60,128 nt of DNA from Minisyncoccota bacterium (GTDB lineage Bacteria; Patescibacteriota; Minisyncoccia; UBA6257; GWB1-50-10), in the NCBI GenBank assembly GCA_020059915.1, contig JAGVBB010000002.1, forward strand, positions 1 to 60,128. The letters are read 5' to 3'. The notes beneath the pieces are model-generated. The model had not been told where the DNA came from and did no database searches. It was given only the letters and a program-made list of their open reading frames with translations. Positions within the stretch are counted from its first letter, which is position 1, and each line of letters opens with the position of its first letter. The position numbers were made by a program, and so were the translations under genes. Below, one piece after another: positions 1-51,415 of the stretch.

Positions 1-123
1 CTAGGATTCGAACCAAGGGCGCATAAAAACAAGGAGTATTTATAATACGACTATGTTTTTATTGCGTTTCGACCGAAGGGAGATAAGAATCCTAGTGGGC
101 CTGCCTGCGGTAGGCAGGGGCAC
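1..123 (+). repeat. tRNA-derived unit: antisense T-arm, hairpin spacer, tRNA-3'-end-like copy interrupted by a palindrome
   Basis: ctaggattc (1-9) and gaatcctag (87-95) are inverted repeats; inner stem gcataaaaaca/tgtttttattgc; palindrome at 100-118. Confidence 0.6.
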
Positions 124-44295: not shown

Positions 44296-44643
44296 ACTCC
44301 GACAAAAGTCGGAGTTTTTTTATGGGCGGCTATTTATTAGATTGGGAATTCTTTCAACTAACCACTCGCCGTCGCTCGTGGTTGTTTCAAGCCTGGGCTC
44401 GCTGTGCTCGTTACTACTCGCACAACGCTCCGCCCTTCAATTCCTAATCAGAGACAATAAATTGTCTCTGATTCTATCCGCCAAAAAACTCCGACAAAAG
44501 TCGGAGTTTCTTTTTGGGCGGCTAGAGGGAATTTTTCTCCCCCAACCTCATTATCATTCGGCTTCCTCCGAAACCTGCCGCACCCGCTCGGACCAATGGC
44601 GCGGGTGTCGGCTTCAATTTCTTTTTAATTGCCCAACTACGTT
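44296..44643 (-). repeat. Two tRNA-His 3'-end duplication units
   Basis: 19-bp copy at 44515-44533; degenerate copy at 44324-44350; identical 20-nt hairpins at 44296 and 44488. Confidence 0.85.
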
Positions 44644-44644
44644 G

Positions 44645-44716
44645 GGCGGCTAGAGGGAATTGAACCCTCGATTACGGGACCACAACCCGTCGTTTTACCA
44701 CTAAACTATAGCCGCC
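44645..44716 (-). tRNA. tRNA-His(GTG) with encoded G-1
   Basis: Cloverleaf GCGGCTA/TAGCCGC; anticodon stem ACGGG/CCCGT; GGTTCAATTCC. Confidence 0.95.
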
Positions 44717-51137: not shown

Positions 51138-51208
51138 GCGGGTATCGTATAGCGGCATTACACCACCCTTCCAAGGTGGATACACGGGTTCGAGTCCCGT
51201 TACCCGCT
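51138..51208 (+). tRNA. tRNA-Gly(TCC)
   Basis: GCGGGTA/TACCCGC; CCACC-CTTCCAA-GGTGG. Confidence 0.95.
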
Positions 51209-51248
51209 CAGTAAGGCTCCGCTTGCGGAGTTTTTTAGTTGGTGGGTA

Positions 51249-51320
51249 AATCAAAAACAACTACTTGTTTTTGATTAGGGACTCGAGGGGCGGACCTACC
51301 TACCGGCAGGCAGGGCGATG
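51249..51320 (+). repeat. Partial tRNA-associated unit homologous to the His distal unit, with a palindrome insert
   Basis: aatcaaaaacaa/ttgtttttgatt hairpin, agggactcga, gggcgga, insert at 51295-51314. Confidence 0.75.
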
Positions 51321-51415
51321 TTTATACTCTTCCTGTAACAACCTATATAAAAGCATTTGTAAATAATCAGTTTTCTATGTTATTCTTGACAAAAAGGGCG
51401 TTACAGGGGTGTTAC

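Follow-up and report, generated by a model that had tools for sequence, protein, structure and literature searches.

Several described systems of mobile DNA provide the nearest comparisons for the two elements considered here. Rickettsia palindromic elements (RPEs) are approximately 100–150 bp long and genus-restricted. GIY-YIG homing endonuclease genes occur free-standing or are borne by introns, examples being I-TevI and the seg genes of phage T4. The tRNA genes are targeted by integrative elements, namely, prophages and integrative and conjugative elements, and folded single-stranded attachment sites are used by the CTX phage and by integrons (attC). Repetitive extragenic palindromes (REPs) are imperfect palindromes of 20–40 nucleotides (nt), which insert in palindromes and occasionally in replication or repair genes (PMC3733652). 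Mobile GC clusters of yeast mitochondrial DNA are the subject of PMC4478555. The present analysis concerns a 20-nt palindrome, designated PAL, and a family of gene-less, strongly folded elements, designated class A, found behind tRNA genes in a 60,128-nt stretch of DNA (hereinafter, the window) from contig JAGVBB010000002.1 of a Minisyncoccota bacterium.

The genome under study (G000; 686 kb, 37% G+C, rated 100% complete) consists of 7 contigs (C1–C7), and the window corresponds to C3:1–60128; positions given without a contig refer to the window, which contains six tRNA genes. Two genomes of the same genus (G001 and G002) were used for comparison, and the alleles of other strains were taken from public runs X1–X6 as assembled contigs, not as raw reads. 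Counts of PAL and of Y1_Tnp and GIY-YIG matches were compared in 61 relatives. In the RNA runs X9 and X16, coverage was limited to the neighbouring sigma-factor gene.

PAL as an independent insertion in mobile class A elements

PAL is an independent and precise insertion of 19–21 nt that occurs in either orientation, without duplication, and it has been active recently. At four sites, among them the unit behind tRNA-Gly, natural strains occur both with and without PAL. The following features were distinguished at the tRNA-Gly and tRNA-His loci and at the start of the window.

51138–51209, plus strand: tRNA-Gly (TCC), the gene mirrored by the Gly unit (ARAGORN; Rfam tRNA, 64 bits)
51215–51236, plus strand: terminator-like hairpin ggctccgcttgcggag, then T6 (read directly)
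51241–51249, plus strand: antisense copy of the tRNA-Gly acceptor 3' strand (ggtgggtaa), part of the class A element (the corresponding arm fits its own tRNA in every copy)
51249–51276, plus strand: class A helix P1 (aatcaaaaacaa ctac ttgtttttgatt) (compensatory changes among six copies)
51277–51287, plus strand: antisense copy of the tRNA-Gly T-loop (agggactcgag) (sequence comparison)
51288–51294, plus strand: GGGCGGA, the 5' strand of helix GGGC:GCCC plus the 3-nt bulge GGA, with the PAL target just 3' of it (consensus fold; the helix covaries)
51295–51314, no strand: PAL, the 20-nt palindromic insertion CCTACCTACCGGCAGGCAGG, with a 7-bp stem and a 6-nt loop, G4>A variant (empty allele GGGGCGGA|GCGATG in the X6 contig)
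51315–51323, plus strand: GCGATGTTT, the start of class A helix P3, where the element is truncated in this genome (the X6 contig continues GCGATGTTTTGTCAGTAGACAAAACCGCGA)
44644–44715, minus strand: tRNA-His (GTG) (ARAGORN, Rfam)
44516–44643, minus strand: class D folded element (gaagccgacacccgcgccattggtccgagcgggtgcggc...), which differs from class A, between tRNA-His and its first tail copy (attccctctagccgccc) (sequence comparison)
44315–44487, minus strand: full-length class A element behind tRNA-His, the His distal unit (nhmmer, E = 1.6e-40; fold)
87–123, plus strand: copy of the 18-nt tail of tRNA-Lys (GAATCCTAGTGGG|GGCAC), split by a PAL variant of 19 nt at 100–118 (sequence comparison)

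A preliminary description of the window had regarded the Gly unit (51241–51323) and the His distal unit as homologous, and the Gly fragment indeed matches a profile of three other copies (E = 1e-12). The two compensatory G-C to A-T pairs reported for the hairpin are present (Gly aatcaaaaacaa/ttgtttttgatt versus His aatcagagacaa/ttgtctctgatt, 44473–44446 on the minus strand). The antisense T-loop stretch, 10–11 nt directly after the P1 hairpin in both units, follows each tRNA as had been claimed, that is, gggactcga corresponds to ttcgagtccc of tRNA-Gly and ggaattgaa to ttcaattcc of tRNA-His. The His distal unit reads ggcggatag, aatcagagacaa-ttta-ttgtctctgatt, aggaattgaa, GGGCGGA, GCGTTG, and its PAL site is empty between 44429 and 44428 (GGGCGGA|GCG). 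Comparison of this sequence with GGGGCGGA-[CCTACCTACCGGCAGGCAGG]-GCGATG of the Gly unit bears out a clean 20-nt insert, for which a single boundary is possible and no flank is repeated. The notion of equivalent "units" stood as regards homology and had to be amended in two respects: the Gly unit is incomplete, being a 5' fragment of a ~170-nt element truncated after GCGATGTTT, and the His locus consists of two different elements in tandem.

A search of the whole genome in nhmmer, using a profile constructed from three long copies, detected seven class A copies behind tRNA genes, namely, tRNA-Leu(caa), Val(tac), His, Asp, Thr(cgt), Ile(gat) and, as a fragment, Gly. Each copy contains an antisense copy of the tail of its own tRNA, and full copies add a sense copy. 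Hairpin P1 splits the 5' arm, which is antisense to the final ~19 nt of the tRNA; the sense tail copy forms the 3' end. In full order, a terminator is followed by the antisense acceptor 3' strand, hairpin P1, the antisense T-arm, GGGCGGA, GCG-hairpin(AGTA loop)-CGC, GAGCCC, a helix with loop GAGCGACGGCGA, AGTTGAAA, the sense tRNA tail and a terminator. The six full copies fold alike once PAL is removed; the consensus structure comprises 36 pairs, 23 of them with compensatory changes, and one helix flips fully between subfamilies (GGGC:GCCC, GCCC:GGGC, GGTC:GACC). In the Rfam scan of the window only the tRNAs reached the gathering score, and no family matched class A. The inserts (170–211 nt) contain no open reading frame (ORF) and hence no element-borne integrase.

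The class A units are themselves mobile elements. At tRNA-Val(tac), the strain in run X4 skips exactly 202 nt, i.e., the class A element is missing; in X1 and X4, the strains are shorter by 211 nt at tRNA-Leu(caa), and the joint leaves 19 nt ambiguous, which correspond to the repeated tail (the joint ambiguity at these two loci with presence/absence alleles is 19 nt and 2 nt). The Leu(caa) element is also missing in G001 and G002. As in integration at tRNA genes, a direct repeat of the tail bounds the insert, the tRNA is intact and empty sites exist in relatives. At the His locus of other strains (X1, X3, X4) the terminator stands directly after the tRNA and the elements are absent. Homologues of class D, which the X1, X3 and X4 strains lack, were found behind tRNA-Leu(caa) in G001 and G002.

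Within class A, three copies (Leu, Gly and Val) have PAL at GGGCGGA^GCG, and the His, Asp, Thr and Ile copies have none. The Leu and Gly copies carry it in the TACCGGCA orientation and the Val copy as TGCCGGTA, whose loop is GCCGGT rather than ACCGGC. Because the site falls in a 3-nt bulge (consensus columns 58/59) that separates two helices, PAL adds a hairpin without breaking the class A fold.

Empty alleles were found both inside and outside class A. The X6 contig corresponds to window positions 51207–51294 followed by GCGATGTTTTGTCAGTAGACAAAACCGCGA, the normal P3 hairpin, and thus presents the Gly unit without PAL (GGGGCGGA|GCGATG). In X3, the Leu(caa) class A copy lacks exactly PAL ("474 left out 20"). 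The folD gene (C3:139450–139470) contains a 21-nt in-frame version (CCATGCC...) that encodes HAYRQAG and is missing in X1 ("3051 left out 21"), G001 and G002, and an in-frame copy in uvrC encodes LPAGRQG; the genes stay intact, and empty alleles exist. The sites at C4:22632 (just after a terminator stem) and C4:34424 (in a terminator loop) are cleanly empty in G001 and G002, and the site at C2:63823, where PAL interrupts a tail copy of tRNA-Leu(gag), is empty in G002. Removal of PAL exactly restores the tail copies of both tRNA-Leu(gag) and tRNA-Lys. The latter case is the palindrome at 100–118 that the preliminary description had noticed at the window start: it is a 19-nt variant, and its deletion yields GAATCCTAGTGGG|GGCAC, the exact 18-nt tail of tRNA-Lys (gene at C1:71380–71454).

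No target duplication, which together with terminal inverted repeats marks miniature inverted-repeat transposable elements derived from DDE transposases, was detected at the seven sites with empty alleles or relatives, and the flanks of empty PAL sites have no common motif or target consensus. Across phyla, PAL is followed by C or T in 93% of copies, and the boundary is then ambiguous by 1 nt. Some copies occupy the middle of another PAL or lie within other hairpins. No match to the palindrome pattern (0) is expected in shuffles of the window. In the whole genome, approximately 22 family members of 19, 20 or 21 nt were counted, mostly intergenic, nine of them exact and the coding copies in folD and uvrC included. 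With these further copies, and with empty orthologous sites in runs X1, X3 and X6 and in G001 and G002, the original suggestion, namely, a mobile palindrome of very short length whose insertion leaves no target duplication, held up on both counts.

Several side observations concern the same loci. The tRNA-Gly locus (window 51192–51355; runs X1–X6) turns over among near-identical strains: it is common to the public strains up to 51236–51240 and diverges after that point. Most of them have a class B element inside the tRNA-Gly tail and a 48–52-nt AT-rich spacer instead of the class A fragment, and in run X2 a PAL lies within the class B element, after GGACTCGAAGGGTATTCGA. In G001 and G002, this locus is occupied by other elements. 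The window itself begins (1–123) inside an element that copies the tRNA-Lys tail, and that gene stands at the extreme end of C1 (C1:71380–71593). The assembly probably broke at the tRNA-Lys tail repeat, and the end of C1 and the start of C3 may therefore adjoin.

In folD, a second and different 21-nt in-frame hairpin (ATCTACCTACCAGATAGGTAG; C3:139486–139506, outside the window) is located 15 nt after PAL and is absent in G001; the folD gene of G002 (locus L137) has yet a further hairpin of 21 nt (GATCTTGTCCGCCTGGGGCGG) at precisely this codon position. In uvrC (C2:245540–245620), in-frame ttcaatt heptad repeats surround PAL, giving KLKIENLPAGRQGSKLKIG; the heptads of G001 lack PAL, and those of G002 run in the other orientation and are accompanied by a PAL variant of 18 nt. 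Six 21-nt variants (five CCTGCCTGTCCGGTAGGCAGG and one ending in GGTAGG) cluster at C2:285661–289457, embedded in longer nested palindromes that precede large genes for surface proteins or lie within them. A fuzzy search also revealed a resemblance of PAL to the universally conserved 16S hairpin near the EUB338 site (C1:24016–24033; CCUAC-GGGAGGCAG versus CCUACCGGCAGGCAG; 13 of 15 positions, one gap); by a rough estimate (about 0.1) this likeness is within chance.

Distribution of PAL and its linkage to tRNA loci and GIY-YIG cassettes

PAL was found in 25 of the 61 relatives, the copy number ranging from 0 to 13 among the 61, and a reversed control pattern gave 0. By copy number the genome under study is second among 61 genomes, after G010 with 13 copies; its two congeners contain 1 and 3 copies versus 9 exact ones here. 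Among GTDB species genomes, at least 120 stretches likewise contain the exact 20-mer, compared with ~1 expected by chance in 596 Gb. The taxa include Bacteroidota, Ignavibacteria, Chloroflexota, Nitrospirota, Planctomycetota, Omnitrophota and several groups of the candidate phyla radiation (CPR). Three of the genomes belong to cultured isolates, namely, Olivibacter oleidegradans CCM 7765, Flavobacteriaceae bacterium R38 and Thermobacterium salinum TK19130. In addition, 12 IMG/VR stretches (viral contigs) contain the exact 20-mer; in one phage contig with three PALs, no candidate enzyme was visible in the part examined. The flanks of PAL are unrelated across phyla.

We found no paper with the PAL sequence in the literature. 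It is absent from the REP survey PMC3733652, which shows no CPR hairpin family, and the RepRanger article of 2025 (PMC12306157), examined for Patescibacteria, RAYT and related terms, leaves Patescibacteria unmentioned.

PAL is associated with tRNA loci and, at part of its sites in relatives and other phyla, with mini GIY-YIG cassettes. In this genome, 7 of the 22 copies are located within 300 nt of a tRNA gene, compared with 3.7% of the genome (p = 1e-5); across phyla, the proportion is 14 of 125 copies versus 3.2% of control positions (p = 5e-5). As for the nuclease, 8 of 56 PAL sites in relatives lie at most 100 nt from a PF01541 match (p = 8e-13), and among the 61 relatives PAL-positive genomes have 4.7 GIY-YIG matches per genome versus 2.9 in the others (p = 0.006).

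The physical arrangement is similar in seven relatives: a pseudo tRNA 5' piece (the first 20–35 nt) with PAL is followed by an ORF of 80–95 amino acids (aa) and then by an intact tRNA. Nuclease genes adjacent to PAL include G004:C12:3672–3905 and G027:C4:23166–23378. In the pseudo-tRNA pieces, PAL is located in the D-loop or just after the D-arm. In other phyla, according to a profile search, a mini GIY-YIG ORF adjoins PAL in 7 of 120 loci, with all matches at most 122 nt from PAL (a regular expression for GIY-YIG was too strict and detected 1 locus only). Six of these loci show the same architecture of pseudo-tRNA, PAL, ORF and tRNA (L023, L047, L061, L079, L117 and L127), and some pseudo-tRNA pieces of L047 and L061 contain two PALs. 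In L078, the ORF is followed by a 3' pseudo-copy, and PAL is located in the T-loop of the latter. PAL thus accumulates in redundant tRNA pieces left by tRNA-colonising elements, and the analogous hosts in the genome under study are the tail copies and class A. A side observation was made in locus L295 (G047:C7:14350–15050), where two pseudo tRNA 5' copies precede a mini GIY-YIG ORF: PAL interrupts one of them, and the anticodon-stem strand of the other is replaced by a different palindrome of 15 nt (TCCGCCGACGGCGGA).

Among its own genes, the genome contains one tyrosine recombinase, three mini GIY-YIG ORFs (C2:90599–90820, C2:131703–131903 and C2:200972–201181) and two unclassified reverse transcriptases. 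The latter (C2:147318–148322 and C2:138479–139492, ~335 aa) remain below all curated cut-offs (retron, Drt, group II), and both have an IGNLTSQ-type motif, which is typical of diversity-generating retroelements. A PAL copy at C2:147255–147274, 44 nt after the stop codon of one of them, is their only tie to PAL.

Candidate mechanism and rival explanations

The best explanation of these data, which we consider reasonably probable, is that two nested layers of small non-coding mobile DNA, class A and PAL, are present. PAL has no coding capacity and must therefore be moved in trans. As the most likely mechanism, we tentatively propose that it travels in the form of a single-stranded hairpin on which a structure-specific nuclease acts. 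The ~85-aa GIY-YIG nucleases are the best candidates because of their physical and statistical linkage to PAL in relatives and in other phyla. The nuclease cassettes reside in tRNA genes, of which they duplicate the displaced piece, and PAL is located in loops and junctions of the redundant pieces. In such a scheme, it would survive only where an extra hairpin is harmless, for example, in pseudo-tRNA pieces, class A junctions, terminator loops and, as 21-nt in-frame versions, surface loops of proteins. A joint reading of all elements is conceivable, although we regard it as doubtful: PAL may be the non-autonomous partner of a previously undescribed, near pan-bacterial, phage-borne system, whose autonomous members would be the ~85-aa GIY-YIG cassettes that colonise tRNA genes and duplicate a tRNA piece. 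Folded, tRNA-like DNA in single-stranded form would be recognised by their nuclease, which would introduce the 20-nt hairpin into loops and junctions without duplication, and the elements of classes A–D would be gene-less riders of this system.

Several points weigh against this interpretation of PAL. The three GIY-YIG ORFs of the genome are not next to PAL (0 of ~22 copies) and have other end repeats; G010, with 13 PAL copies, contains only 2 GIY-YIG matches; and ~94% of PAL copies are not beside a nuclease gene. The GIY-YIG statistics ignore kinship, and a preference of both PAL and the cassettes for tRNA loci could by itself give the association. The enzyme is a candidate proposed from its linkage to PAL. 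The population evidence for PAL alleles stands at the level of contigs, the alleles are compatible with insertion as well as with precise excision, and the three class A copies of PAL could partly reflect gene conversion between paralogous elements. Targeting of hairpin loops as a rule is not statistically supported: when 118 rebuilt empty sites were folded, the junction was in a loop in 23% of cases versus 18% of controls (p = 0.22). In the same folding test, the PAL flanks were more structured than controls (p = 0.0015).

The rival explanations differ in what they take PAL to be. A REP or REPIN (REP doublet) moved on single-stranded hairpins by a REP-associated tyrosine transposase (RAYT), i.e., an IS200/IS605-like Y1 HUH enzyme, would account for the 20-nt size, the hairpin form and the lack of target duplication, as well as for copies inside other palindromes and in a repair gene (uvrC), which are known for REPs (Di Nocera et al. 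2013, PMC3733652); moreover, Y1_Tnp-like ORFs are present in 22 of the 61 relatives, including G001 and G002. However, the genome under study has no Y1_Tnp (PF01797) match despite the second highest number of PAL copies, and PAL and Y1_Tnp are independent in the 61 genomes (both in 10, PAL only in 15, Y1 only in 12; Fisher p = 0.6). In addition, the 125 copies examined have no terminal GTAG/CGTC tag and no conserved flank (GTAG is only internal and in one orientation), and no REPIN doublets were found, only nested copies and the dispersed cluster at C2:285–289 kb. PAL is not a RAYT-type REP in this genome, and we consider such an origin of PAL improbable. It may be added that the Y1_Tnp ORFs of the relatives (~225–270 aa) match only the C-terminal two thirds of PF01797. 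A non-mobile PAL, either an optional native hairpin of class A (a variable expansion segment) or a regulatory or terminator hairpin of the host, would be in line with a junction that tolerates an extra helix and with copies at or in terminators (C4:22632, C4:34424). The same 20 nt nevertheless recur in unrelated contexts (in frame in folD and uvrC, in tRNA tail copies, nested in itself), in many phyla and in phage contigs, with exact presence/absence alleles; already contradicted by the empty sites and the coding copies, this explanation is hardly tenable. The occurrence of an identical short GC-rich palindrome in many unrelated metagenome-assembled genomes might raise the suspicion of an assembly or sequencing artefact, to which we give practically no credence: the same positions recur in independent runs and studies, which already contradicts it, three isolate genomes contain PAL, and copies occur in frame in genes and as length variants of 19, 20 and 21 nt.

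Two other explanations accept a mobile origin and differ in its course. PAL might have been acquired once by class A and then spread by gene conversion or with a PAL-bearing master copy, rather than by three insertions at GGA^GCG. Its identical position in the Leu, Val and Gly copies agrees with this, as do the flanks GGGCGGA / GCG(A/T)T conserved among copies of the A1 subfamily and the lack of a target consensus elsewhere. On the other hand, the Val copy has PAL in the opposite orientation, and many sites outside class A are left unexplained. Other strains have PAL-free Leu and Gly copies at the same loci; therefore, PAL status changes after the element has settled. A single acquisition is accordingly a possible but rather unlikely source of the three copies. 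We judge it very improbable that PAL represents fused terminal inverted repeats (TIRs) of a GIY-YIG cassette, i.e., a solo-TIR deletion derivative. In favour of the idea, two of the genome's own GIY-YIG cassettes have 11-nt inverted ends (CCCGTTAGAAG / CTTCTAACGGG and CCCCGTGAGAT / ATCTCACGGGG), each pair of which would form a 22-nt palindrome when fused. Yet 120 metagenome stretches with half-PALs (CCTGCCTRCC ... GGYAGGCAGG) 235–265 nt apart contained 0 GIY-YIG ORFs, and real cassettes have a whole PAL on one side only, inside the pseudo-tRNA piece, at a varying position and sometimes in two copies.

The two-layer reading of class A and PAL derives its interest from three natural states of one locus (no element, element, element with hairpin), which were seen at two tRNA loci. 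This allelic series is direct evidence of the precise movement of a 20-nt non-coding hairpin in a 686-kb genome without a recognisable transposase. The data argue against the REP-RAYT system and point to tiny GIY-YIG nucleases in tRNA genes; the partnership, if true, would be a new pair of autonomous and non-autonomous elements. PAL would then be among the smallest mobile elements known and, in nature, one that writes 7-residue peptides into essential proteins. The presence of the same 20 bases in Bacteroidota, CPR, Chloroflexota, Nitrospirota, Planctomycetota and phages would be explained if a mobile system were shared. The mobility of PAL would also account for short in-frame inserts in essential genes and for assembly breaks and rapid turnover beside tRNA genes in small genomes.

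Comparison with described mobile elements

The class A elements are similar to tRNA-integrating elements in their location at the tRNA 3' end, where a direct repeat of the tail keeps the gene intact, and in single-stranded DNA the tail and its inverted copy could fold together, as in folded attachment sites. In contrast to such elements, class A is only 170–210 nt long, has no integrase gene and possesses a conserved, covarying core.

The GIY-YIG cassettes linked to PAL resemble homing endonuclease genes in that a small mobile cassette codes only for a GIY-YIG nuclease and is inserted in conserved genes. Their ORFs, however, are of ~85 aa and comprise the catalytic domain only; they are known from sequence, and homing is putative. 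Unlike homing genes, the cassettes reside in tRNA genes, where the tRNA stays intact owing to a duplicated piece, and they are accompanied by a separate 20-nt hairpin.

With the GC clusters of yeast mitochondrial DNA, PAL has in common that it is a very short, GC-rich, hairpin-forming mobile family of an AT-rich genome, recognised by population polymorphism; the clusters belong to a mitochondrial, eukaryotic system and have different sequences.

Similarly to RPEs, PAL is a palindromic repeat found in frame inside essential genes that are left intact, in a bacterium with a small genome. It differs in its length of 19–21 nt, its pan-phylum distribution and its unrelated sequence, and its coding copies are exactly 21 nt (7 codons). 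With REPs and REPINs it shares multiple copies, a patchy distribution among relatives, a short, imperfect and mostly extragenic palindrome and the lack of target duplication. In contrast to them, PAL has no GTAG/CGTC tag, doublets or RAYT and no Y1 association in the 61 relatives, its 20-mer is identical across phyla, and it is linked to mini GIY-YIG cassettes and tRNA genes. REPs and RPEs are the nearest described kinds; PAL departs from the former in the defining features examined (end tag, RAYT, doublets) and is far smaller than the latter.

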